From the IMG/VR virus record IMGVR_UViG_3300038859_000015, positions 1 through 36,935 of that record: DNA of 36,935 nucleotides. One strand, written 5' to 3'. The first letter of the stretch is position 1; each line of letters begins with the position of its first letter. Below the pieces are notes generated by a model. The model worked only from the letters and a program-made list of their open reading frames with translations. It had not been told where the DNA came from and ran no database searches. Made by a program: the position numbers and the translations under genes. This DNA is from a virus. This document shows, in pieces, positions 1-36,935 of the stretch.

Positions 1-99
1 ACGATCTCAGCACCGCGAACGTAGATCTTTCCCTCCTCCAAGGTGATTGTGTCCGCATCTTGGACATTAAAGTCATCAAGTCGATTGATGCGAACAACA
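1..99. repeat. 99-bp terminal direct repeat, copy 1. Assembly overlap marking a circular or circularly permuted genome.
   Basis: Bases 1-99 (acgatctcagcaccgcgaac...tcgattgatgcgaacaaca) recur exactly at 36837-36935. The repeat lies inside a coding sequence. Confidence 0.95.
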
Positions 100-12779: not shown

Positions 12780-13508
12780 ATGAAGGAGACTTACTCACAC
12801 GAATTTAATTGGTGGCAGAAAATTGTTTCTATACTAACCACTATGTGGCGCATCAATAAGGATTCTATAGATTTTAAATGGGGATATTTCGCACCTCGGT
12901 TTGGTTTCGAATTTATGGTTCACCGCGGTGGATATTTTGATCAGCATTATGCCATCAGTTGGTGTTTGATCTGGGGCCAATTTCATATTAAGGTTCCATT
13001 CAAAACCCGAATTCCTGGGTCATGTGATACTCCCAACTACGGCATTCAAATTCACAACAATACCTTTTGGCTTCACCTTGGTGGGAAAATGAATGATTGG
13101 GAGCAGTGTGATTCTAAGTGGATCACTTGGGACTTACCGTTCTTTAGTTGGATTCATGATCTCCATCAGGTCTGGACTGGTAAGAAGTGGGTCAACCCAG
13201 GTGGCGAGTATTCTGAACCCTATAGCGATGGACGATTAGTAGAAAAACACCAATACATCTATGTCCTCAACTCCGGTGAAATTCAAGACCGAATTGCCAC
13301 CTGCTATATTGAACGGCGTATCTGGCATCGGAAGTGGTTTCCATTTTTTGAAATGGTTCGCATCTCCTTAAATATCGATTTTAATGATGAGGTAGGCGAA
13401 GAAACCGGGTCCTGGAAGGGTGGCACTGTTGGCTGTGGCTGGGAAGTGGAACCTGATGAAACTATAGAACAAGCTTTGCGACGTATGGAAGCTATCAGAA
13501 AATTTTAA
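12780..13508 (+). CDS. Trp-rich orphan protein (242 aa) in a low-GC patch
   Basis: Long intact ORF with an AAGGA RBS. Hand-counted GC is 35-40% in 12781-12900, against about 60% in 12301-12360. No family recognised. Confidence 0.65.
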   Translation: MKETYSHEFNWWQKIVSILTTMWRINKDSIDFKWGYFAPRFGFEFMVHRGGYFDQHYAISWCLIWGQFHIKVPFKTRIPGSCDTPNYGIQIHNNTFWLHLGGKMNDWEQCDSKWITWDLPFFSWIHDLHQVWTGKKWVNPGGEYSEPYSDGRLVEKHQYIYVLNSGEIQDRIATCYIERRIWHRKWFPFFEMVRISLNIDFNDEVGEETGSWKGGTVGCGWEVEPDETIEQALRRMEAIRKF

Positions 13509-17329: not shown

Positions 17330-17514
17330 TGCAATCAACTCATCTACAAGGTTCAGAGGAAGTACAACGTGCCGCTAATCAGATGGTGGCAGCTGCAGAA
17401 CAGATTACCCGGGCAGTTAACCAATTTGATTCTACCATTGAACGACTCGCCGTTATTGCACAACAATTTGAAGACTCAGTTGAACGTCTAGTTATGGACG
17501 AACCTACAGTATGA
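17329..17514 (+). CDS. hypothetical protein (61 aa)
   Basis: The ATG overlaps the upstream TGA, and the stop overlaps the polymerase ATG (ATGA). Confidence 0.5.
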   Translation: MQSTHLQGSEEVQRAANQMVAAAEQITRAVNQFDSTIERLAVIAQQFEDSVERLVMDEPTV

Positions 17515-19436
17515 GACAACCTAAGCCTGTCACCATTGACTTTGAGACCTTCGGTATTGAGGGTCGTCCCAAGTACCCACCTATCCCAGTTGGTGTCTCC
17601 ATCAAGGTGTGGGGTCGCAAGTCCAAGTACTACGCCTTTGGCCACCCGACTGAGAACAACTGCTGTTGGTCGGAGGCCGCATCCGCCCTTGAAGAGGCCT
17701 ACCAGTGCGAGGACGGGGTGCTCTTCCAAAACGGTAAGTTTGATGTTGATGTGGCGGAGGAGTGGTTCGGTCTTGCGGTACCTGAGTGGGGCAAGATCCA
17801 TGACACCATGTTCCTGTTGTTTCTTGATGACCCCCACCAGCGTGAGCTCGGCCTAAAGGAGGCGGCAGCACGACTGCTCGACTGGCCCGCTGAGGAGCAG
17901 GATGCCATCGGTGAGTGGCTCATTGCCAATCAACCAGTACCAGGGGTCAAGATCAGCAAGAGCAAGTCCAGCGAGCACTACTTCGGCCGCTACCTCTGCT
18001 TCGCGCCAGGCAAGCTCACCGGCGCCTACGCCAACGGTGACGTGGACCGCACCGAGGGGCTGTTCAAGTTGCTCTGGAAGAAGACCCGGGATCGTGAGAT
18101 GCTTGAGCCCTATGATCGCGAGCGGCGTCTCATGCCCATCCTGCTTGAGATGGAGCGTCAGGGATTGCCTGTTGACCTGGATCGGTTGCGTGCCGATGTT
18201 GAGAGCTACAGCCAGTGGCGCGAGCGGTTAAATGAGTGGCTCATTGAGAAGCTGCAGTGTGGTCCTGGCATCAATTTCAACTCCGGGCAGCAGCTCTTTA
18301 AGGCCATGCTCGAGGCGGGTTTGGTTGATGAGGCCAAAGCACCACTCACTCCCACCGGGAAGTACCAGACCAACAAGGAGGCACTGCTCGTCGCGGTCAA
18401 TGATAAACAGCTCCTGGCCGTGCTCAAGTACCGCACCCAACTGAACACCTGCCTCAATACGTTCATGGCGCCGTGGCTGCACACCGCTGAGCAGTCAGGC
18501 GGGCTCATCTTCACCAACTGGAACCAGGTGCGGTCCCCCAAGGGCGCGGACAACGCCGGCACCAGAACGGGACGGCTGTCCTCCACCCCCAACTTCCAGA
18601 ACATTCCCAATGAGTTCAAAGCGATCTTCAAGCACGACACCGCCGATCGCAAGCTGCGACGCGGACTGCCAAGGTCGCCATTTGATGACCTACCACCGCT
18701 GCCCAAGGTGCGGAGCTACATTGTGCCGTTCCCTGGCGAGATCCTGATCGATCGTGATTACAGCCAACAGGAACCGCGAATCCTCGGTCACTTTGATGGC
18801 GGACAGATCTTGGAAAAGTACCAGGCCGACCCGTGGATTGACTTCCATGACTCCGCCAAGGAGGAGCTGGCCAAGGTCGGTAAGCACTACGAGAGGAAGC
18901 CGGTAAAGAACACCAACCTCGGCATCATCTACGGCATGGGCGTCGGGAAGATGGCCGAGAAGAACGACATGGCGGTGGATGAGGCGAGCGCCCTGAAGAA
19001 GGCCATCCTGCTGCTCTATCCTGGCATCAAGGAGATGTACCGTGACATGAAGGCGCGAGCGGCCAACAAGCTGCCCATCCGCACCTGGGGCGGGCGGGAG
19101 TACTACTGCGAGGAGCCGAAGCTGGTGCAAGGTCGTCTCCGCCACTTTGATTACAAGATGGTGAACGTGCTGATTCAGGGCTCCGCTGCTGACTGCACCA
19201 AGGAGGCAATCATCCGCTACCACGCGGTGAAGCACCCGTCGTCGAAGATCATTCTCAACGTGCATGATCAGATCACTGCCTCGATTCCCAAGCGGATCCT
19301 CAAGAGCGAGATGCAGGTGCTGCGTGAGACCATGGAATCGGTTGAGTTTGACGTGCCCATCCTCAGTGAGGGCGACATCTCTGATACCAACTGGGATGAA
19401 CTTAAAACATACGACAAGAAAGGAGTAATTCAATAA
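17511..19436 (+). CDS. polA: family A DNA polymerase with 3'-5' proofreading exonuclease domain (641 aa)
   Basis: Exo I TIDFET, Exo II NGKFDVDV, Exo III YANGDVD. Motif A DRDYSQQEPRIL, motif B RKPVKNTNLGIIYGMG, motif C NVHDQI. Confidence 0.9.
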   Translation: MRQPKPVTIDFETFGIEGRPKYPPIPVGVSIKVWGRKSKYYAFGHPTENNCCWSEAASALEEAYQCEDGVLFQNGKFDVDVAEEWFGLAVPEWGKIHDTMFLLFLDDPHQRELGLKEAAARLLDWPAEEQDAIGEWLIANQPVPGVKISKSKSSEHYFGRYLCFAPGKLTGAYANGDVDRTEGLFKLLWKKTRDREMLEPYDRERRLMPILLEMERQGLPVDLDRLRADVESYSQWRERLNEWLIEKLQCGPGINFNSGQQLFKAMLEAGLVDEAKAPLTPTGKYQTNKEALLVAVNDKQLLAVLKYRTQLNTCLNTFMAPWLHTAEQSGGLIFTNWNQVRSPKGADNAGTRTGRLSSTPNFQNIPNEFKAIFKHDTADRKLRRGLPRSPFDDLPPLPKVRSYIVPFPGEILIDRDYSQQEPRILGHFDGGQILEKYQADPWIDFHDSAKEELAKVGKHYERKPVKNTNLGIIYGMGVGKMAEKNDMAVDEASALKKAILLLYPGIKEMYRDMKARAANKLPIRTWGGREYYCEEPKLVQGRLRHFDYKMVNVLIQGSAADCTKEAIIRYHAVKHPSSKIILNVHDQITASIPKRILKSEMQVLRETMESVEFDVPILSEGDISDTNWDELKTYDKKGVIQ

Positions 19437-22593: not shown

Positions 22594-23046
22594 ATGACTA
22601 AACAAGCTGATACCGTTAAGATCTTCAAGCGGCGCGACTCCGCTACTGCGGTGCTTCGCAAGATGGGAATCAACTCCCGCGACTACGGCCTCTTCATTGA
22701 GAAGATGGAAGACGGCCGCTTTACCTGTCAGGTGGCCCTCGCTGAGGGGCATCTTGAATCTCTCAAAGAGCAGACCAAGCCAAAGCCCAAGAAGAAAGCT
22801 ACTAAGGTCAAGAAGGAGAAGCGGGTCACCATCTCCAGCCTGTGCCGTGACATGATCCTGGACGGTGCAGACAACGCTGCCATCTTCAAGGCACTGCAGG
22901 AAAAGTATGGTGAGGAGCGGTTCGGGCCAGAGAAACGCCACTATCCTGCCTGGTACCGTTGTGAGCTGCGTCGCAAAGGTGAGTTGCCACCGGCCTTTGA
23001 TCCCATCAACCAGGACCCTACTGCTGTTCACGTAGTGGAGGACTGA
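22594..23046 (+). CDS. hypothetical protein with Lys-rich linker and a C-terminal 'WYR' module (150 aa)
   Basis: First gene after a promoter. KPKPKKKATKVKKEKR linker. The C-terminus resembles that of the 23471-24091 product. Confidence 0.6.
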   Translation: MTKQADTVKIFKRRDSATAVLRKMGINSRDYGLFIEKMEDGRFTCQVALAEGHLESLKEQTKPKPKKKATKVKKEKRVTISSLCRDMILDGADNAAIFKALQEKYGEERFGPEKRHYPAWYRCELRRKGELPPAFDPINQDPTAVHVVED

Positions 23047-23252: not shown

Positions 23253-23502
23253 GAACATCAATATCCGCGACGAGAGCACCGATACCGAGAAGCGGTTTCA
23301 GTTCTACGTGGGTGATTGTCGTCGTGGTCTGGTCACAATGGGCCCAGATAGGCGAGTCAAATTTCACTGGCAAACTGCCGGCCCATCTCAGATCGAGGAG
23401 GCGCGCATCTGGATTCAAGGACTGTTGGAACTTTCAATGATTGCAGAACAACTAGAAGTGGAGGCCAAACATGGCAAGAAGAAAACGCGCCGGCGCAAGT
23501 AG
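23239..23502 (+). CDS. hypothetical protein (87 aa)
   Basis: ATG 23239 with an AGGAGG RBS. The track start at 23155 is upstream and in frame. Confidence 0.55.
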   Translation: MDRIENINIRDESTDTEKRFQFYVGDCRRGLVTMGPDRRVKFHWQTAGPSQIEEARIWIQGLLELSMIAEQLEVEAKHGKKKTRRRK

Positions 23503-24091
23503 CAAGGGCGTTTACCGGGACCATAACGGACGAACCTGTCTGCTGGTGAAGGATGGCGATGAGGTTGAGTTCATCCCGCTTGACATCTCAGAGGGCTTTC
23601 AGGTGCACACCACCACACGGGTGTCATTTGACAAGCGCTATCTACCCATGGTAGACTACCCGCTAGACAAGGCCGCTGCGCTGTATCTTAACTATGCCTT
23701 AGCGGTCGGCGCCAGTGAGGCGGTTGTTGAGCACTTGGCGCAGATCATTGAAGTGAGCACCATCGACCGTGAGACGATCATCTTAAAGCGGGCACCAACC
23801 AAAGTGGAGAAGCCAAAGCGGCAACGTAAGGTGAAGGATGCGCCCAAGGCACCTGACTCAACCACCAAGCGAAAAGCACGGCGGGCAGTGAAGAAAGCCA
23901 AGAACAGCTCAGGCTACCCATCTGCTGCTCAGATGTTCCAGGCACTGATCATGGCGGGTGAGCTCACTGATGATGAGATCTTCGCCCAGGTGCAGGCTGC
24001 CTTTGACCTCGAGGACAAGAAGCGCAGCTACGTGAAGTGGTACCGTAACAATTTAACTAAACAGGGGAAGAACCCACCGGAGGCAAAATGA
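23471..24091 (+). CDS. hypothetical protein with Lys-rich linker and a C-terminal 'WYR' module (206 aa)
   Basis: KVEKPKRQRKVKDAPKAPDSTTKRKARRAVKKAK linker. C-terminus ...IFAQVQAAFDLEDKKRSYVKWYRNNLTKQGKNPP. Confidence 0.6.
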   Translation: MARRKRAGASSKGVYRDHNGRTCLLVKDGDEVEFIPLDISEGFQVHTTTRVSFDKRYLPMVDYPLDKAAALYLNYALAVGASEAVVEHLAQIIEVSTIDRETIILKRAPTKVEKPKRQRKVKDAPKAPDSTTKRKARRAVKKAKNSSGYPSAAQMFQALIMAGELTDDEIFAQVQAAFDLEDKKRSYVKWYRNNLTKQGKNPPEAK

Positions 24092-24276
24092 AGTTAAGAT
24101 CCGCTGGCCAAGCAGTCGTTGACTCAGGTCTTGTCAATGAGGTTGGCCACAAGGGCGTCTTTGTACCAACCCCTCGCAAGGACCGAAACCGCCCGCAGTG
24201 CCATTTGCAGTACGTCCACCCATCTAACCTAACCAAGGAGAAGAATGATGCCAAAGACGCGTCAAGTGAAGCGTGA
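24088..24276 (+). CDS. questionable small ORF (62 aa)
   Basis: ATGA-coupled to the upstream gene and fills an otherwise 153-nt gap. It overlaps the methyltransferase start by 32 nt and has no recognisable motif. Confidence 0.3.
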   Translation: MKLRSAGQAVVDSGLVNEVGHKGVFVPTPRKDRNRPQCHLQYVHPSNLTKEKNDAKDASSEA

Positions 24277-25060
24277 TGAGCGCGATTTCGACACCACCCA
24301 ACTGAAGATGTCCGGCCACGGCCGCACGCTGCACCGGGACTACTCAGCCCACTTCTGGCGTTGGAGCTTTGCACGCCGCTTCATCACTGCCAAGGATTCA
24401 GTGATTGAGATCGGGTGCGGTGAGGAGAAGCCACTGAGCAAGATCCTGACCGGCGGTGCCGCTGCGCATGTTGATCGCTATGTGGGAGTGGATCTAAACA
24501 AGCTCAAGGAGTCAAAGTCGCAACGCTTGGACTTCTACGGTGAGGTTGATTTCACCAATCCACGTGTCCGTAAGAAAATCCTAGAGCAGCACGGTGAGTT
24601 CGACATCGCAGTGCACTTTGAGGTCATTGAGCACATGCAGGTGGCCAGCGGGCGTAAGCTGCTTAAGGGTTGCCTTGAAGCATTGAAACCAGGCGGCGTC
24701 ATGCTAATGTCCACCCCTGTCTACGATGGTAAGCGCCATGCCGCTAACCATATCCATGAGTACTATGCTGACGAGCTCCAGGAGGAGGTTGAAAAGGCCG
24801 GCTTCGTTGTTGAGCGCCGCTTCGGTACCTTCATGGACATCAAACACATTGGTAAAGCAGATACCGACCGTTGCTCAACCGAAGCCATCAAAGAGGTCTC
24901 TGACGCCCTGCGTGAGTACTTTGACAACGACGCCATCAGCAACATCTTCGGCCCGTTGTACCAGGACCACTCACGCAACAACCTCTGGGTTTGCCGTAAG
25001 CCAAAGGCAGCCAAGTCGTCACGCCGCAAGCGTCGCGCCAAAGATAAGGCTCCGTTCTAA
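24245..25060 (+). CDS. class I SAM-dependent methyltransferase, small-molecule/UbiG-like type rather than an obvious DNA MTase (271 aa)
   Basis: Motif I VIEIGCGEE, post-I VGVDL, HFEVIEHM and LKPGGVMLMSTP. No DPPY or PC-type DNA-MTase motif. AAGGAG RBS. Confidence 0.75.
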   Translation: MMPKTRQVKRDERDFDTTQLKMSGHGRTLHRDYSAHFWRWSFARRFITAKDSVIEIGCGEEKPLSKILTGGAAAHVDRYVGVDLNKLKESKSQRLDFYGEVDFTNPRVRKKILEQHGEFDIAVHFEVIEHMQVASGRKLLKGCLEALKPGGVMLMSTPVYDGKRHAANHIHEYYADELQEEVEKAGFVVERRFGTFMDIKHIGKADTDRCSTEAIKEVSDALREYFDNDAISNIFGPLYQDHSRNNLWVCRKPKAAKSSRRKRRAKDKAPF

Positions 25061-25551
25061 TGAGCAACTTCAACGATGTTAAAACCTTTCACAAGAAGTT
25101 CGGGCTGCTTAATGGCGATGCCCCTCGCCGCCTCACTGATCGTAAGCTCCAAGAGCGGATGGAGTTCCTCTTTGAGGAGTTTCGCGAGTTTGCCATGGGG
25201 TGCGGTTGCATCCTGACCGTCGATGGGAACCCACTGGATTACCCTGACGATCCATCCACTAAGGTCAAGTTCTATAAGATCGACGACCAGGACCTGGCTG
25301 AGCAGGCTGATGCTCTCATCGACCTGGTTTACGTGGCCATGGGAACAGCTGTGATGCTCGGTCTGCCGTGGCAGGAGCTTTGGGATGACGTGCAGCGCGC
25401 CAACATGGACAAGGAGCGCGGGGTTGGGAAGCGTGGTCACCCAGTTGATTGTATCAAACCAGAGGGCTGGGTCGGACCTAAGACCCAAGAGATCTTATTG
25501 ACCAGTGGCTATGATGAGTCAGCCGAGGAGGTGGACGATGAGATCAAGTAA
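25060..25551 (+). CDS. MazG/HisE-like all-alpha nucleoside triphosphate pyrophosphohydrolase (163 aa)
   Basis: FHKKFGL...RMEFLFEEFREFA...EQADALIDLVYVAMG matches the EExxE/D acidic helix pattern of this superfamily. Confidence 0.65.
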   Translation: MSNFNDVKTFHKKFGLLNGDAPRRLTDRKLQERMEFLFEEFREFAMGCGCILTVDGNPLDYPDDPSTKVKFYKIDDQDLAEQADALIDLVYVAMGTAVMLGLPWQELWDDVQRANMDKERGVGKRGHPVDCIKPEGWVGPKTQEILLTSGYDESAEEVDDEIK

Positions 25552-26437
25552 GCTTACCATCTTCGAGGGCCCTGATGGATCAGGCAAGACCACTGCCGCT
25601 GTCGAATACGCCAAGGCCACTGGTGCTAAGTACGTGCACTTTGCCAACCTACCGCAGGTTGGCAAGAACCTGGCACGAATGTACGTCGAGGCCATGCTGC
25701 CCGCGCTGCTCGGTTACCAGGGTGTGGTCTTCGATCGCTGCTGGCTCAGCGAGGTGCCTTATGGCACCGCCTTCCGTGAGGGGCAGGATCGTTTGGGCTA
25801 CGCCACCTGTCGGATGCTTGAACGACTTGCCATGCGGTGCGGTGCGGTGGTGGTGCACTGTCGCCCACCCTGGGCCAAGGTCAAGCAGACCTACCTCAGT
25901 CGCCGTGAGGAGGAGTACCTCGAGAACGACAACCAGCTCCGGGTGGTTTACGACCTGTATGGCAAGAACCGCACCGGGCTGCCTGAGCTGATGTACGACT
26001 ATACGGCGGAACCAGAACTACGCCCCATGCTGGTCGATGCCCTTCGCATGCCCCAACACCCGCTTGACGTCCAATCAGCTGGGAACTGGGGTGCCAGGAC
26101 GGTGCTGGTTGGGGAGGGGTTCGCCTACCAAAAGGACTGTGACGCCCTGTATCAGTGGCCATTCGCGTCGTTCAGCAAGTTGGGGTGCAGTCAGTGGTTG
26201 ACTGAGCAGCTTGGTGATCATGACGTTTGGGAAAAGGACCTGCTCTGGATCAACGCTGATCAGGACCTGTCCGTGCTCTATGACCTAGAACCAGAGCGTA
26301 TCGTGGCGCTGGGCAAGGAGGCGTGCACCCAACTTTATCGGTTGAAGATCATGGCAGCCACCGTGCCGCACCCGCAACATCACAAGCGCTTCAATATCAC
26401 GAAGCCCTATGAGCTCTTTGACTATATCGGAGGATAA
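25538..26437 (+). CDS. fusion protein: thymidylate-kinase-like dNMP kinase (N) plus UDG-superfamily fold domain (C), about 299 aa
   Basis: N-terminal part: IFEGPDGSGKTT P-loop and VFDRCWLSEVPYG (the Tmk DR motif). C-terminal part: VLVGEGFA...WPF...WL...IVALGK...VPHPQHHKR, matching family-4-like UDG motifs A (GEGPG...PF) and B (HPS..R). ATG 25538 with a GAGGAGG RBS. Confidence 0.7.
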   Translation: MRSSKLTIFEGPDGSGKTTAAVEYAKATGAKYVHFANLPQVGKNLARMYVEAMLPALLGYQGVVFDRCWLSEVPYGTAFREGQDRLGYATCRMLERLAMRCGAVVVHCRPPWAKVKQTYLSRREEEYLENDNQLRVVYDLYGKNRTGLPELMYDYTAEPELRPMLVDALRMPQHPLDVQSAGNWGARTVLVGEGFAYQKDCDALYQWPFASFSKLGCSQWLTEQLGDHDVWEKDLLWINADQDLSVLYDLEPERIVALGKEACTQLYRLKIMAATVPHPQHHKRFNITKPYELFDYIGG

Positions 26438-26439
26438 TC

Positions 26440-27231
26440 ATGACAAAAGATCTGCCCTACGTGTGGCTTGAGGCCATCAATGACATCTTAACCAACGGCG
26501 ATGAGGTAGCGCCGCGCGGCCAGTTAACCAGGGAGCTGCTGCAGCGAACCATGGTGGTGGACATGCGCCGTCCGGTACTGACTGTGCCACAACGAAAGTT
26601 GAGCTACCAGTTCATGGCCGCTGAGGCCTACTGGATTCTGACCGGTGACAATCGGGTCAGCACCATCGCCCCGTACAACAAGCACATCAGCCAGTTCAGC
26701 GATGACGGCGAGACCTTCTTCGGTGCCTATGGGCCCAAGATTATGTCGCAATTGCAGTACGTGGTATCGAAGCTGCTACTGGATCTCGACACCCGTCAGG
26801 CTGGGCTCACCATTTGGCGTGAGTGCCCACCTGCGACCAAGGACGTGCCGTGCACCGTAGCGGTGTTCTTTAACATTCGCAACAACAAGCTGAACTGCCA
26901 CACCTTCATGCGTTCATCTGATGTTTGGTTGGGGGTACCATACGACGTCTTCAACTTCAGCATGCTCAGTCACATGGTGTGCTGCTTGTTGAACGGTGAC
27001 CTCAACGCGGATGGCCCTATCACACCTGGTGATCTTCACCTAACCGCAGCCAGCTCCCACCTTTATGAGCGCAACTTCGAGGCGGCGCGTGAGTGCCTGA
27101 CCGCGGAGGTCCTGGATCAGCAGCTGACCCCGGAGGCGTTGTTTACAGACAGCGAGAAGTTCTCCAAGTGGTTGAAGGACCTGCGTGATACTAAACCTGG
27201 CACCACCTTTCTGCGCTGGTGGGAAAACTGA
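26440..27231 (+). CDS. ThyA-family pyrimidine-nucleotide C5 transferase. Predicted dCMP-specific (hydroxymethylase or methylase) rather than canonical thymidylate synthase (263 aa).
   Basis: Gap-free match of NKLNCHTFMRSSDVWLGVPYDVFNFSML to E. coli [28 protein letters not shown]. Catalytic Cys in DVPCT. Asp (26944-26946) sits at the Asn177 position, as in T4 gp42. Confidence 0.75.
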   Translation: MTKDLPYVWLEAINDILTNGDEVAPRGQLTRELLQRTMVVDMRRPVLTVPQRKLSYQFMAAEAYWILTGDNRVSTIAPYNKHISQFSDDGETFFGAYGPKIMSQLQYVVSKLLLDLDTRQAGLTIWRECPPATKDVPCTVAVFFNIRNNKLNCHTFMRSSDVWLGVPYDVFNFSMLSHMVCCLLNGDLNADGPITPGDLHLTAASSHLYERNFEAARECLTAEVLDQQLTPEALFTDSEKFSKWLKDLRDTKPGTTFLRWWEN

Positions 27232-27256
27232 TGAGCATCAGGCGGGGGTGGGAGCA

Positions 27257-27766
27257 ATGAGGCCGTCACGAGAGACCTGGGCCATGGGGTTAGCTCAGCT
27301 CACTGCCCAACGGTCTACCTGTTATCGTCGTCAAGTGGGGTGCGTGCTCCTGAATAGACGAGGCCACGTGCTATCGACTGGCTATAATGGGGTGGCCGCC
27401 GGGTTGCCTCATTGCAACCAACCAGAGCTGGTGCCAGTGGTTGAGAACCACCAACTGGCGGTGGAACATGACGTGCCGTTAGTGGCGGATAACAGAAATA
27501 TCTGCAGCGGCGCGCGGTCAGCTAGTGGCACCGATCTTGATGGGTGCCAGGCCATCCATGCCGAGCAGAACGCGTTGCTCCAGTGCGGCGACGTCCACCA
27601 GATCCACACCGCCTTTGTGACAGCGTCGCCCTGCATGACCTGCACCAAGTTGCTGCTTAACACAGCCTGTGAACGTATCATCTTTGTGGAGGAGTATCCC
27701 CACAATGAGGCGCAGGCTTTGTGGGAATCATCAGGTAGGAAGTGGTTAAAATTTGATCAGCTCTAG
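27257..27766 (+). CDS. dCMP deaminase (about 169 aa)
   Basis: HAEQNAL and SPCMTCTKLL zinc-binding motifs. N-terminus WAMGLAQLTAQRSTC. ATG 27257 with a GGGAG RBS. Confidence 0.85.
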   Translation: MRPSRETWAMGLAQLTAQRSTCYRRQVGCVLLNRRGHVLSTGYNGVAAGLPHCNQPELVPVVENHQLAVEHDVPLVADNRNICSGARSASGTDLDGCQAIHAEQNALLQCGDVHQIHTAFVTASPCMTCTKLLLNTACERIIFVEEYPHNEAQALWESSGRKWLKFDQL

Positions 27767-27856: not shown

Positions 27857-28258
27857 TTAACCTCTGGTACGTTCAATAATGACATCGACCTCATCAGGGA
27901 CCAGGTCAAGCAGCTTAGACAGGGTGGCGCGCGAGTTGGTGACATCTGGGACACCATCCGCATCTAAGTACTTGATACCATCTCCCACAAGCAGGCATCC
28001 CTCGATCTGGCGGGTGTAGTTCCCCGCGTGGACCTCAATATAAGTCCGGTTGTGGACATTATGAAGCAACAGCACAGCGCCGTGCTTCGGCGACCCATAC
28101 TTTGTGGCTTTATAGGTACCAGCTGGGATGCAAGAGATGTTACGACTGTTGCCCAACCACGGCAGCTCCAAGGTAAAGCAACGGAAATCACCGTACTGGA
28201 GCCGGCCCAGGGTGCACTCCGGTTGGTTCCAAGAATCTATTAAGATCTTTGTTTTCAC
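27857..28258 (-). CDS. putative cell-wall hydrolase, DUF5675-like with a YkuD-like H...GC motif (133 aa)
   Basis: Last gene of the lysis cassette. YIEVHAGNYTRQIEGCLLVG is reminiscent of the His/Gly-Cys signature of L,D-peptidases. GTG start with an AGGAGG RBS. Confidence 0.45.
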   Translation of the reverse strand: MKTKILIDSWNQPECTLGRLQYGDFRCFTLELPWLGNSRNISCIPAGTYKATKYGSPKHGAVLLLHNVHNRTYIEVHAGNYTRQIEGCLLVGDGIKYLDADGVPDVTNSRATLSKLLDLVPDEVDVIIERTRG

Positions 28259-35440: not shown

Positions 35441-36935
35441 TTATGACCTTGAGCAAATCATCCTTGAATCAGTGACCTCATTATCCACACCGCCCATACC
35501 ATTTTCCACATAAATAACAAATCCCTCATCCTCCACGACATCGAGAATATCCACGACCTGTGAAGACAAGGGCACGCCGTTTCGAGCCGAGACGGTGGAA
35601 CCATTAGCATCACGGGTGGCAGCATACGAGGTGTCAGTCTTCATCAATACCGCTCGTACTGGGCTGTCAGCTCCTGATACCTTCTGCACGGTGACCCAGC
35701 CCTCAATGCTCAACGAGGTAGCTACCTCACCGGTGTACACAAACCAGCCCGACGCGCTGTCCCCCGTGGTGTGGCAGTAGTAGTTGGGCTCGGTACCGTC
35801 ATCAGTGAACTCAACTAATGTTGTAAGTCCACTGTCGGCGTACAGTTGAAAGGTGGTGGCAGTAACACTGCCGACGTAGTAAATGACCTTCTCCTGCAGC
35901 TCAGCGGGAAGGCCACCGTTCTCACGCAACTCGATCTTATCCCCATTAGCAAGACCGTGGTTGAACGCAGTCCCACCAGTGGCATCGATGGCGCCATCCA
36001 CTGCCGTACAGGTGTTGGTGGTGTTGTCAAAGGTCACCTTATCACTAAAGCAGATGCGCTCCTCAACATTTCCATCTGACCATAAGGTGTTAATCGGCGT
36101 TGGTACGTTAGGGCCAGACATCACAGTCACATCGGTGTTACCATCAAATTGCAGGATGCCTTTAATGGTTGAATCACTAACCGGCGGACAGTTGTCAAAG
36201 TCATATCGTTTATCGCCGCTTGAGATGTTCTCTAACGGGGTGACTCCGCCAATGAACTCGCAGTCACGTACAGTAGCAATAACTCCGGGGGCGATGTTTG
36301 CAGAATCCTCGTCCCCGGAAATACCAATTGCTCCAGAAGGTGCGACGAAAATGATATTATTGACTTCAAACACCTGGAAGGTAGCCCCTGGGTACTCTAA
36401 TCCCTTAAAAGCTGAGCTCGCACTTCCCAAAGCGAGACGGTTGATGGTAAGAACGGAAAAGTCCCCGATTAAGGTCAGTCCACCATCAAGCCCAAGAGAA
36501 AATGTTTCATCAACAGCTGATACAAACCCGCAATTAACGATCTGAAGGGTTTCAAGATCTGTAAAGGTGCCAAACTTTTGACTAATTTTTTCAAGCCCGG
36601 AGTCAGCAAAACCTCGTACATCTTGTATATAGACAATCGAATCAGAGCCAACATCAGAGAAGTTATAGATCTGATTAGCATTAGGCGCTGAAATGGCGTC
36701 CCACCGATGGCTAAATGTTCTTACGTCCACCCCAGTAAACATGTCCCCTGTCCCGGTGTAGATAAGTCGTTCACCAGCATCAAAGCTTTGATGCGTAAGA
36801 ACCACATTGGGCTCAACAATGAACCGCTTATCGGTAACGATCTCAGCACCGCGAACGTAGATCTTTCCCTCCTCCAAGGTGATTGTGTCCGCATCTTGGA
36901 CATTAAAGTCATCAAGTCGATTGATGCGAACAACA
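35441..36935 (-). CDS. tail fibre / second receptor-binding protein. Its 5' end continues at 100..125 across the junction (about 506 aa in total).
   Basis: Long ORF with beta-rich repetitive sequence. It stays open through 36935 and continues in frame to the ATG at 125 once the 99-bp overlap is collapsed. Confidence 0.7.
   Translation of the reverse strand, partial: VVRINRLDDFNVQDADTITLEEGKIYVRGAEIVTDKRFIVEPNVVLTHQSFDAGERLIYTGTGDMFTGVDVRTFSHRWDAISAPNANQIYNFSDVGSDSIVYIQDVRGFADSGLEKISQKFGTFTDLETLQIVNCGFVSAVDETFSLGLDGGLTLIGDFSVLTINRLALGSASSAFKGLEYPGATFQVFEVNNIIFVAPSGAIGISGDEDSANIAPGVIATVRDCEFIGGVTPLENISSGDKRYDFDNCPPVSDSTIKGILQFDGNTDVTVMSGPNVPTPINTLWSDGNVEERICFSDKVTFDNTTNTCTAVDGAIDATGGTAFNHGLANGDKIELRENGGLPAELQEKVIYYVGSVTATTFQLYADSGLTTLVEFTDDGTEPNYYCHTTGDSASGWFVYTGEVATSLSIEGWVTVQKVSGADSPVRAVLMKTDTSYAATRDANGSTVSARNGVPLSSQVVDILDVVEDEGFVIYVENGMGGVDNEVTDSRMICSRS
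36837..36935. repeat. 99-bp terminal direct repeat, copy 2
   Basis: Exact copy of bases 1-99. Confidence 0.95.

Follow-up and report, generated by a model that had tools for sequence, protein, structure and literature searches.

A ThyA-family gene with aspartate at position 177, a PRA-PH gene and a deaminase gene together form a known signature of cytosine modification in phages. The retrieved passages of the MetaGPA reports (PMC8670742; bioRxiv 2024.12.05.627091) describe the specific co-localization of ThyA(D177), PRA-PH, deoxycytidylate (dCMP) deaminase and PolA on cytosine-modified phage contigs, a 5-hydroxymethylcytosine (5hmC) carbamoyltransferase that serves as a variable tailoring enzyme paired with the hydroxymethylase, and neighboring deaminases of which some prefer 5-methyl-dC substrates. 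According to passages retrieved from PMC13326640 and PMC8670742, and in the E. coli ThyA numbering used below, N177D switches specificity from deoxyuridylate (dUMP) to dCMP, an acidic residue in place of L143 (D or E, giving water access) correlates with hydroxymethyl products as in T4 gp42 and MilA, and D169N marks flavin-dependent 5-hydroxy-dCMP synthases of the RB69 gp48/DLP3 gp80 type. A cultured example of unusual DNA is Stenotrophomonas phage AXL3: of 37 restriction enzymes, only two, TasI (AATT) and Tru1I (TTAA), cut its genome, and none of the 35 whose sites include G or C did so (AXL3 paper); the authors inferred a G/C modification, left the base unidentified and annotated the five-gene cassette considered below as ordinary thymidylate synthesis. 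KpnI and Eam1105I partially digest DNA of phage AXL1, a relative of Xp12 presumed to carry 5-methylcytosine (5mC). Here we analyze a viral DNA stretch of 36,935 nucleotides (the window; IMG/VR record IMGVR_UViG_3300038859_000015, positions 1–36,935) that harbors a five-gene cassette of the AXL3 type, and we propose, with a probability of roughly 70%, that this cassette would replace cytosine completely with a 5hmC-derived base through a T4-like, pre-replicative route. The T4-like cytosine logic of the original prediction, made from the letters of the window, is sustained by active-site residues identical to those of gp42, by the published ThyA(D177), PRA-PH and deaminase hallmark, and by the restriction resistance of AXL3.

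The cassette occupies positions 24248–27766 on the + strand and closes a long rightward replication block encoding a primase, an ATP-dependent ligase, a family-A DNA polymerase (17511–19436), exonucleases, an endonuclease and a SNF2-type helicase. Its genes and domains are as follows.

24248–25060, + strand: class I S-adenosylmethionine (SAM)-dependent methyltransferase, 270 aa (Pfam Methyltransf_23, E 7.7e-14)
25060–25551, + strand: MazG/HisE-like all-alpha NTP pyrophosphatase, 163 aa (Pfam PRA-PH, E 2e-13)
25538–26437, + strand: fusion of a kinase and a uracil-DNA glycosylase (UDG)-fold domain (PHROG 761 'thymidylate kinase', 1e-13)
25538–26038, + strand: Tmk-like P-loop kinase domain, fusion residues 1–167 (motifs, Foldseek, PHROG 761)
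26039–26437, + strand: shortened UDG-fold domain, fusion residues 168–299 (domain model against the PDB)
26440–27231, + strand: ThyA homolog, 263 aa (Pfam Thymidylat_synt, E 4e-24)
27257–27766, + strand: dCMP deaminase family protein, 169 aa (Pfam dCMP_cyt_deam_1, E 2.8e-18)

In gene order, the methyltransferase stop codon and the MazG start codon share 1 nt (TAATG), the next two genes overlap by 14 nt, and gaps of 2 nt and 25 nt separate the remaining pairs. The claim of five consecutive, tightly packed genes thus describes the locus correctly, with all genes present, co-directional and either overlapping or at most 25 nt apart, and the proposed identity of each of the five is upheld by profile, PHROG or structure matches. 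No terminator-like site lies on the coding strand inside the cassette, and a scan for promoters and terminators returned nothing exceeding shuffled expectation.

The ThyA homolog is a member of the ThyA superfamily (PF00303; Thymidylat_synt 85.6 bits against a cut-off of 24.3) in which the catalytic cysteine C138 (E. coli C146) and residues R158, S159 and D161 of the phosphate–folate motif (E. coli R166/S167/D169) are aligned and invariant. Asp169 (codon 26944–26946) falls at E. coli N177, the position of T4 D179, in three independent alignments (PDB, a curated set of eight sequences and a set of 45 sequences), and the enzyme therefore carries the dCMP-specifying Asp that had been read from the sequence. 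Window residue D135 stands at E. coli L143, T139 at H147 and the retained D161 at D169, and all 42 cassette homologs, like T4 gp42, share the resulting signature D143/C146/T147/D169/D177 without change, so that the suggested comparison with gp42 holds at every diagnostic active-site position; overall the two proteins are 25% identical. Among PDB sequences the window enzyme matches the CMP 5-hydroxymethylase MilA best (6.9e-19). The dUMP hydroxymethylase SPO1 gp29 has D143, a retained D169 and N177, and the PaMx74 enzyme, presumed to be of the 5mC type and 26% identical to the window protein, has N143, P147 and D177. The window enzyme is set apart from canonical thymidylate synthases, since the equivalents of L143, H147 and W80 are all changed and the NCBIfam thymidylate-synthase equivalogs reach at best 63 bits against cut-offs of 108–427. 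Its acidic position 143 and Thr at 147 likewise depart from a 5-methyl-dCMP synthase despite D177, and, with the D169 equivalent retained in the window and the 42 homologs, the enzyme is not a 5-hydroxy-dCMP synthase. The combination of an acidic residue at L143 with a kept D169 fits a hydroxymethylase by a rule that is correlative, and from this active-site signature we predict that the ThyA homolog is a dCMP hydroxymethylase forming 5-hydroxymethyl-dCMP.

Dozens of independent phage contigs carry these five genes in an identical order, including AXL3, Pseudoxanthomonas phage PW916 and the Manatee Spring siphovirus MW202621, which indicates that the arrangement did not arise by chance. We assembled 42 loci bearing the kinase–UDG fusion (37 from IMG/VR, the three phages just named and two metagenome contigs), of which 40 were assessable, and found the methyltransferase gene directly upstream of MazG in 38 of the 42, with two of the four exceptions at a contig edge; the cassette order is thereby kept in 38 of the 40 assessable loci. 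Homologs of the fusion (n = 646) and of the methyltransferase (n = 962) lie mostly on phage-like contigs of 31–72 kb from many environments, and identities among the best 120 of the 962 methyltransferase homologs are 64–100%. AXL3 DNA is uncut by KpnI and Eam1105I, unlike AXL1 DNA, which hints at something other than plain 5mC in AXL3.

Membership of the second cassette protein in the MazG/HisE superfamily, as first proposed, is evident from PRA-PH (51 bits against a cut-off of 21.3) and from PHROG 671 'nucleotide pyrophosphohydrolase' (3.5e-22). Its relatives in the PDB include 3nl9 (1.4e-7) and the DR2231 MazG-like protein (3.8e-6). From its context, the MazG-like protein may act as a dCTPase, possibly also as a dUTPase, that would supply dCMP and bar dCTP from the nucleotide pool. 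The parallel drawn with T4 gp56 stands at the level of function and superfamily and fails at the level of sequence similarity: homology to gp56 was considered and rejected as undetectable by BLAST.

The kinase–UDG fusion starts at 25538 according to database protein P0001, rather than at the GTG at 25505. An AlphaFold model of the full-length protein has a predicted local distance difference test (pLDDT) score of 84.5, and Foldseek matches its N-terminal domain to a deoxynucleoside kinase, YorR and thymidylate kinases (E 1e-5, probability 1.0). An alignment of 25 homologs shows no variation in the P-loop FEGPDGSGKT or in a DRxxxSxxxYG motif, with the conserved DR lying within FDRCWLSE, as in a Tmk-like fold; the Pfam Thymidylate_kin score of 15.7–18.2 bits falls below that family's cut-off of 27. 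A stand-alone kinase of this type adjoins the same type of ThyA in other loci. The proposed counterpart to T4 gp1 is therefore apt as a functional and superfamily parallel, while the best folds for the kinase domain are of the Tmk, deoxynucleoside kinase and YorR type. From sequence, the domain would be a kinase for 5-substituted dCMP.

Foldseek returned only kinases for the full-length model because the N-terminal domain dominates the match, and Pfam gave no match to a UDG family in the C-terminal half even at E 10. Since no sequence profile detects a UDG domain in the protein, we modeled the C-terminal 132 residues alone (pLDDT 81.5), and the 35 best PDB matches were all family-4 UDG or UdgX structures (best 1l9g, E 4.6e-5) with TM-scores of 0.55–0.59. 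The separate model and its PDB matches confirm the UDG fold, and with it the earlier description of a Tmk-like kinase fused to a UDG-fold domain. Family-4 UDGs carry a motif A of GE[A/G]PG, extend over about 190 aa and bind an Fe–S cluster through four cysteines. The fusion domain has the same alpha/beta fold and keeps a motif-B-like HP pair, a Phe and an Asn: among the 25 homologs P208, F209, H278 and P279 are invariant and N239 is nearly so, with F209 presumably the base-stacking residue and N239 presumably a base-contacting one. It differs in being linked to a kinase, in lacking both a conserved motif A and a Pfam UDG match, and in being some 60 residues short (132 against about 190 in the matched family-4 UDGs). 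The Glu of its motif-A-like VGE, which we take to be the catalytic residue, varies among E, D, K, Q, H and G, and in place of four conserved cysteines only one is nearly invariant. The variable Glu, the missing four-Cys set, the length of about 130 residues and the kinase fusion make a glycosylase function doubtful, and the domain is most likely a module for pyrimidine binding or base recognition instead of a working glycosylase. UDG-like folds also occur in several phage DNA polymerases in a viral structure library.

The fifth gene, for which ATG at 27257 is a likelier start than GTG at 27185, encodes the dCMP deaminase that had been named from the sequence: it scores 66.1 bits with dCMP_cyt_deam_1 (PF00383, cut-off 25) and 3e-37 with PHROG 174 'dCMP deaminase', contains HAE and PCxxC zinc motifs (HAEQNA and SPCMTC), and is 61–62% identical to the deaminases of AXL3, PW916 and MW202621. 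It would supply dUMP for deoxythymidylate (dTMP) synthesis and possibly act on 5-substituted dC nucleotides as well. Five loci (L025, L026, L027, L028 and L047) have the methyltransferase, MazG, kinase–UDG and ThyA genes and no deaminase in the fetched flank, from which we take the deaminase to be dispensable for the core pathway.

In the pathway that we propose, the MazG-like enzyme would hydrolyze dCTP, and probably dUTP, to the monophosphate, and the ThyA homolog, judged by its active-site residues, would convert dCMP and methylene-tetrahydrofolate to 5-hydroxymethyl-dCMP. The Tmk-like domain would phosphorylate the modified monophosphate, with the UDG-fold domain most likely serving as its base-recognition module, host NDP kinase would complete the triphosphate, and the phage family-A polymerase would incorporate it into DNA. 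Part of the dCMP would be diverted by the deaminase to dUMP for dTMP synthesis by the host. The SAM methyltransferase would act last, tailoring the hydroxymethyl group at the nucleotide or the DNA level, and this is the least certain step.

The methyltransferase was expected not to be of the DNA type, and its matches agree: it scores 52.2 bits with Methyltransf_23 (cut-off 27), no DNA-methyltransferase family in Pfam matches at E up to 0.1, and the family alignment holds no DPPY-type motif. G56 and G58 in EIGCGEE and D82 in VGVDLN, which we take to be motifs I and II, are invariant in the family, as befits the glycine-rich and acidic motifs of a class I SAM-dependent enzyme. The NCBIfam models UbiG (7e-9) and Hen1 (5e-5) both match far below their cut-offs, and the nearest solved structures to the family profile are the Hen1 methyltransferase domain 3jwg (1.7e-5) and UbiG (2.5e-5). 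Hen1 is a metal-dependent O-methyltransferase with four metal ligands, E-x-x-E-H ... H, and window residues E125, E128, H129 and H168, invariant in the family, align with the EVIEH...H of the Clostridium thermocellum enzyme (3jwg). UbiG is also metal-dependent, and E-x-x-E-H is present in the aligned UbiG sequence too, so the motif is not unique to Hen1. With Hen1 and UbiG, both O-methyltransferases, as nearest relatives and the Hen1 metal ligands kept, the protein fits O-methylation of a hydroxyl group. Its C-terminus (24995–25057) is a Lys/Arg-rich tail ending in A-P-F, found in many but not all homologs, which may be a nucleic-acid-binding or protein-docking peptide.

Natural variants of the cassette, collected in a wider metagenome scan with profile hidden Markov models built from the cassette proteins, relate the methyltransferase to the type of ThyA. 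ThyA homologs with the hydroxymethylase signature usually adjoin this kinase whether or not the UDG domain is present, as in L073, where a kinase lacking UDG accompanies the methyltransferase, MazG, ThyA and deaminase genes. In locus L043 (identical to L105; 5420–8250) the ThyA homolog is swapped for a W80/L143/H147/D177 methylase-type enzyme, predicted to be a 5-methyl-dCMP synthase, and MazG, the kinase–UDG fusion and the deaminase are kept while the methyltransferase is lost; the paired change suggests that the two ThyA types are not equivalent. A search for further methylase-type swaps in a kinase–UDG context gave only this locus. The methyltransferase is absent from all five methylase-type D177 loci, whose signatures are WLCHDD (L043/L105, L106 and L107), WLCFDD (L158) and DNCPDD (PaMx74). 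Among hydroxymethylase-type loci that lack the methyltransferase, L060 has an NTP_transferase and a Glyco_trans-like gene nearby, and L034 (2391–5442) has in the slot upstream of MazG a pyridoxal phosphate (PLP)-enzyme-like open reading frame (ORF; PALP 1.4e-6, under cut-off) together with 333- and 380-aa ORFs without a family match, and may produce a different hypermodification. Absence from methylase-type loci and the sugar-transfer genes in some methyltransferase-less variants are suggestive of a tailoring enzyme that would require the hydroxymethyl product.

Retention of the fusion in L043 also bears on its function, since the product of a methylase-type partner offers no hydroxyl to phosphorylate: this argues against a role as a 5-hydroxymethyluracil DNA kinase (5-HMUDK), for which the Pfam output on the fusion contains no family profile, and fits a nucleotide kinase better than a hydroxymethyl kinase. 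We infer that the kinase–UDG protein would act on the nucleotide whatever its C5 group. An analogy of the fusion with aGPT-Pplase and base kinases was dropped, as the paper checked shows no glycosylase relation and L043 argues against it.

Extending the proposal to the last step, we tentatively suggest that the methyltransferase O-methylates hmC, such that 5-methoxymethylcytosine or a similar base would replace cytosine in this phage, in AXL3, in PW916 and in hundreds of uncultured relatives, with the fusion as a dedicated kinase for the modified monophosphate in which the degenerate glycosylase fold would serve base recognition; this stronger version is possible but falls short of being probable. 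An undescribed C5 product is plausible in view of the distribution across loci, where the methyltransferase follows the hydroxymethylase-type enzyme in the manner of a tailoring enzyme. No glucosyltransferase had been seen in the initial reading, and our scan of some 40 window ORFs likewise found no match to a glycosyltransferase family, several of these ORFs matching no family at all.

The alternative that survives best is that the DNA contains plain 5hmC and that the methyltransferase works outside DNA modification, as a Hen1-like RNA 3'-terminal ribose 2'-O-methyltransferase serving RNA protection, RNA repair or anti-defense, or as a small-molecule methyltransferase that happens to share the operon, a reading we regard as open to doubt yet worth serious consideration. 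It draws on the Hen1 methyltransferase domain as best solved relative with all four metal ligands kept, on the PHROG label 'tRNA methyltransferase', on the fact that the metal in Hen1-type enzymes coordinates two adjacent ribose hydroxyls, a pair that 5hmC lacks, and on the existence of hydroxymethylase-type cassettes without the gene. The Hen1 resemblance is, however, limited, since the bacter_Hen1 score of 21.9 bits is far below the cut-off of 340, the alignment to this 270-aa protein covers only profile positions 284–397 of 462, the C-terminal methyltransferase part, and the window ORFs yielded neither Pnkp nor an RNA ligase as an RNA-repair partner. Genomic context also speaks for a role within the cassette: the methyltransferase is fixed directly upstream of, and overlapping, MazG in 38 of the 40 assessable loci on different phage backbones of 31–72 kb, it is missing from five of five methylase-type loci, and of the methyltransferase-less cassettes L060 and phage G have sugar-transfer genes and L034 has the PLP-enzyme-like gene in the slot.

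Several observations weigh against replacement of cytosine by a 5hmC-derived base, or against the tailoring step attached to it. Every enzymatic step is read from sequence. The L143 rule is correlative and imperfect, as seen in PaMx74, whose presumed 5mC enzyme carries Asn there instead of a bulky hydrophobic residue. For the MazG-like protein, BLASTP against T4 gp56 gave E 0.097 over 23 residues only, no detectable similarity, and among its closest solved relatives is DR2231, a MazG-like NTP pyrophosphohydrolase that we take to be a dUTPase. Scans of the window ORFs found neither a dTMP-type ThyA nor a ThyX; host thymidylate synthase would then have to make dTMP, and the absence also fits an Xp12-like deamination of 5-methyl-dC nucleotides to dT. 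Three loci of the hydroxymethylase type (L052, L070 and L075) have no methyltransferase and only neighbors of unknown family, the Hen1-like features could equally fit an RNA ribose 2'-O-methyltransferase, and the link between methyltransferase and enzyme type is suggestive, resting on few loci that are phylogenetically non-independent.

Some of these points would suit an Xp12/Pamexvirus-type 5mC genome, in which the ThyA homolog would be a dCMP methylase forming 5-methyl-dCMP, the deaminase would turn part of the 5-methyl-dC nucleotides into dT nucleotides and so remove the need for a thymidylate synthase, and the methyltransferase would be incidental. An Asp at 177 suits a dCMP methylase equally well; the PRA-PH, ThyA-D177 and deaminase neighborhood is shared with PaMx74 and Xp12 relatives; the MazG-like protein resembles the N-terminal part of gp53, the pyrophosphatase adjoining the PaMx74 ThyA homolog, with 49% identity over 72 aa; the window offers no ThyA or ThyX of its own; and the passages retrieved on MetaGPA show deaminases beside such enzymes preferring 5mC substrates. 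Against this, window D143/T147 resembles T4 gp42 and MilA (and, at D143, SPO1 gp29), whereas methylase-type enzymes have L143/H147, L143/F147 or N143/P147. AXL3 has a ThyX and so does not need the deamination route, its DNA resists the two enzymes that partly cut AXL1, and the methylase-type swap in L043 accompanies loss of the methyltransferase. We consider a 5mC genome improbable, at well under one chance in five.

Replacement of thymine is far less probable still. Such a phage would make 5-hydroxymethyluracil DNA as in SPO1, with the ThyA homolog as dUMP hydroxymethylase and MazG as dUTPase or dTTPase, a scheme in line with the PW916 annotation 'deoxyuridylate hydroxymethyltransferase', with the TKD-x-PC and YNK-x-x-x-QFSDDG motifs common to the window enzyme and SPO1 gp29, with the resemblance of the MazG-like protein to DR2231, and with a deaminase feeding dUMP. 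But gp29 has Asn at 177 where the window and all 42 cassette homologs have Asp, and AXL3 DNA is cut at AATT and TTAA and at no G/C-containing site. Ordinary thymidylate salvage into canonical DNA (dCMP to dUMP to dTMP to dTDP), as annotated in AXL3 and compatible with the family-level labels thymidylate synthase, thymidylate kinase and dCMP deaminase, is the least credible reading of all given the invariant Asp at 177 that switches specificity away from dUMP, the changed L143, H147 and W80 equivalents, NCBIfam scores far under cut-off, and the separate ThyX and restriction-resistant DNA of AXL3.

The genome around the cassette appears complete. An exact 99-bp terminal overlap (window 1–99 = 36837–36935) indicates a complete circular assembly, so that the window is the whole genome, of 36,836 bp. 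Its gene content is that of the podovirus-type genome named at the outset, with portal, major head protein, scaffold, large terminase, P22-type ejection proteins and tail spike, and with no tape measure or tail tube gene found among the window ORFs. A nucleotide search of 50,697 phage records found no close DNA-level relative, the sole match being 32 nt in Xanthomonas phage Mallos; this exact match lies at 25390–25421, within a Mallos gene annotated 'putative DNA binding protein'. A host and prophage scan of a genome collection returned only four phage-sized contigs binned into unrelated metagenome-assembled genomes (MAGs): L186–L189, contigs of 34–44 kb that carry the cassette, were deposited under Lentisphaera, Flavobacterium, Chromatiales and Thiobacillus MAGs and are probably phage genomes mis-binned into bacterial bins.

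Other features of the window and of related loci deserve mention. An ORF at 12780–13508 (+) matches Pfam Acb3, an inhibitor of the cyclic oligonucleotide-based antiphage signaling system (CBASS), strongly (E 1e-47), so an anti-CBASS gene may be part of the early region of this phage. Just upstream of the cassette, two ORFs at 22594–23046 and 23471–24091 (+) have no family match and finish in a similar motif, W-Y-R-x-x-L-x-(K/R)-x-G-x-x-P-P; the second has a homolog at the same position in L043 (4886–5392), and its product may be a conserved companion of the cassette. Downstream, a DUF5675 protein (27857–28258, −; Pfam 1.9e-26) adjoins a holin gene and a lipoprotein-like gene at the place expected of an endolysin. 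A conserved protein of about 300–330 aa beginning MKILITG is encoded near three kinase–UDG/ThyA cassettes that lack the methyltransferase (L052, 5114–6010; L070, 10086–11090; L075, 10663–11661), and a suspected identity as a glucosyltransferase found no support in Pfam, the PDB or a comparison with T4 beta-glucosyltransferase.

Relative to the known cytosine-modification core, a Hen1/UbiG-like methyltransferase tied to a hydroxymethylase and a kinase–UDG fusion are additions undescribed in the searchable literature, in which we found no methyltransferase paired with a dCMP hydroxymethylase, no description of a kinase–UDG fusion and no report of methoxymethylcytosine in phage or as a natural DNA base. 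The AXL3 and PW916 annotations 'thymidylate synthase', 'dUMP hydroxymethyltransferase' and 'thymidylate kinase' are probably wrong. Complete base replacement is a major phage escape from restriction enzymes and from the nucleases of CRISPR (clustered regularly interspaced short palindromic repeats) systems, and new modified bases have yielded tools such as hmC-specific enzymes, 5mC-selective deaminases and modification-dependent nucleases. The cassette is present in two cultured phages, one of which, AXL3, is a phage-therapy candidate whose restriction-proof DNA has been unexplained since 2020; the present analysis gives a specific chemical prediction, a 5-hydroxymethyl-dC core that is possibly O-methylated, and a candidate gene for each step.

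Among described phages, AXL3, PW916 and MW202621 are the closest counterparts, with five genes in the window order and identities of 66–70% for the methyltransferase, 47–52% for the fusion and 57–64% for ThyA; they differ in being siphoviruses with genomes of 47–56 kb and a GC content of up to 63%, and AXL3 has a ThyX. The papers on these phages read the cassette as ordinary thymidylate synthesis and name no DNA modification. MetaGPA cassettes share the core domains and the logic of a tailoring enzyme, while the partner in the window is a UbiG/Hen1-like methyltransferase and not a carbamoyltransferase; the retrieved passages of those reports do not mention a kinase–UDG fusion or a SAM methyltransferase partner. 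The Xp12/Pamexvirus group (PaMx74, AXL1 and DLP4, with dihydrofolate reductase, deaminase, ThyA and pyrophosphatase) resembles the window in its Asp at N177, in a neighboring deaminase gene and in a related MazG-like pyrophosphatase, and both this group and the AXL3 type have cultured relatives whose hosts are Stenotrophomonas or other bacteria of the Xanthomonas group; PaMx74 differs in its N143/P147 enzyme and in having no methyltransferase, kinase or UDG domain. Bacillus phage G (NC_023719 228496–239191, locus L185) encodes gp315, a kinase–UDG protein of like architecture annotated 'thymidylate kinase', the deaminase gp317 and, as gp319, a ThyA homolog whose signature is D143/T147/D169/D177, with no match to the methyltransferase or MazG profiles in gp314–gp319. 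It differs as a 498-kb myovirus of a Gram-positive host in which an annotated alpha-glucosyltransferase, gp313, adjoins these genes, a content that suggests glucosyl-hmC in phage G DNA. T4 has the same division of labor, with an NTP pyrophosphatase, the dCTPase/dUTPase gp56, a ThyA-family dCMP C5-transferase, gp42, a monophosphate kinase, gp1, and a dCMP deaminase, cd, but its gp56 has no detectable sequence similarity to the window pyrophosphatase, the window kinase is Tmk/deoxynucleoside kinase-like with a UDG-fold domain, and the T4 alpha- and beta-glucosyltransferases, of which none was found in the window, have in their stead a SAM methyltransferase. Unlike in T4, the window cassette is contiguous, a single 3.5-kb block of a 36.8-kb genome.

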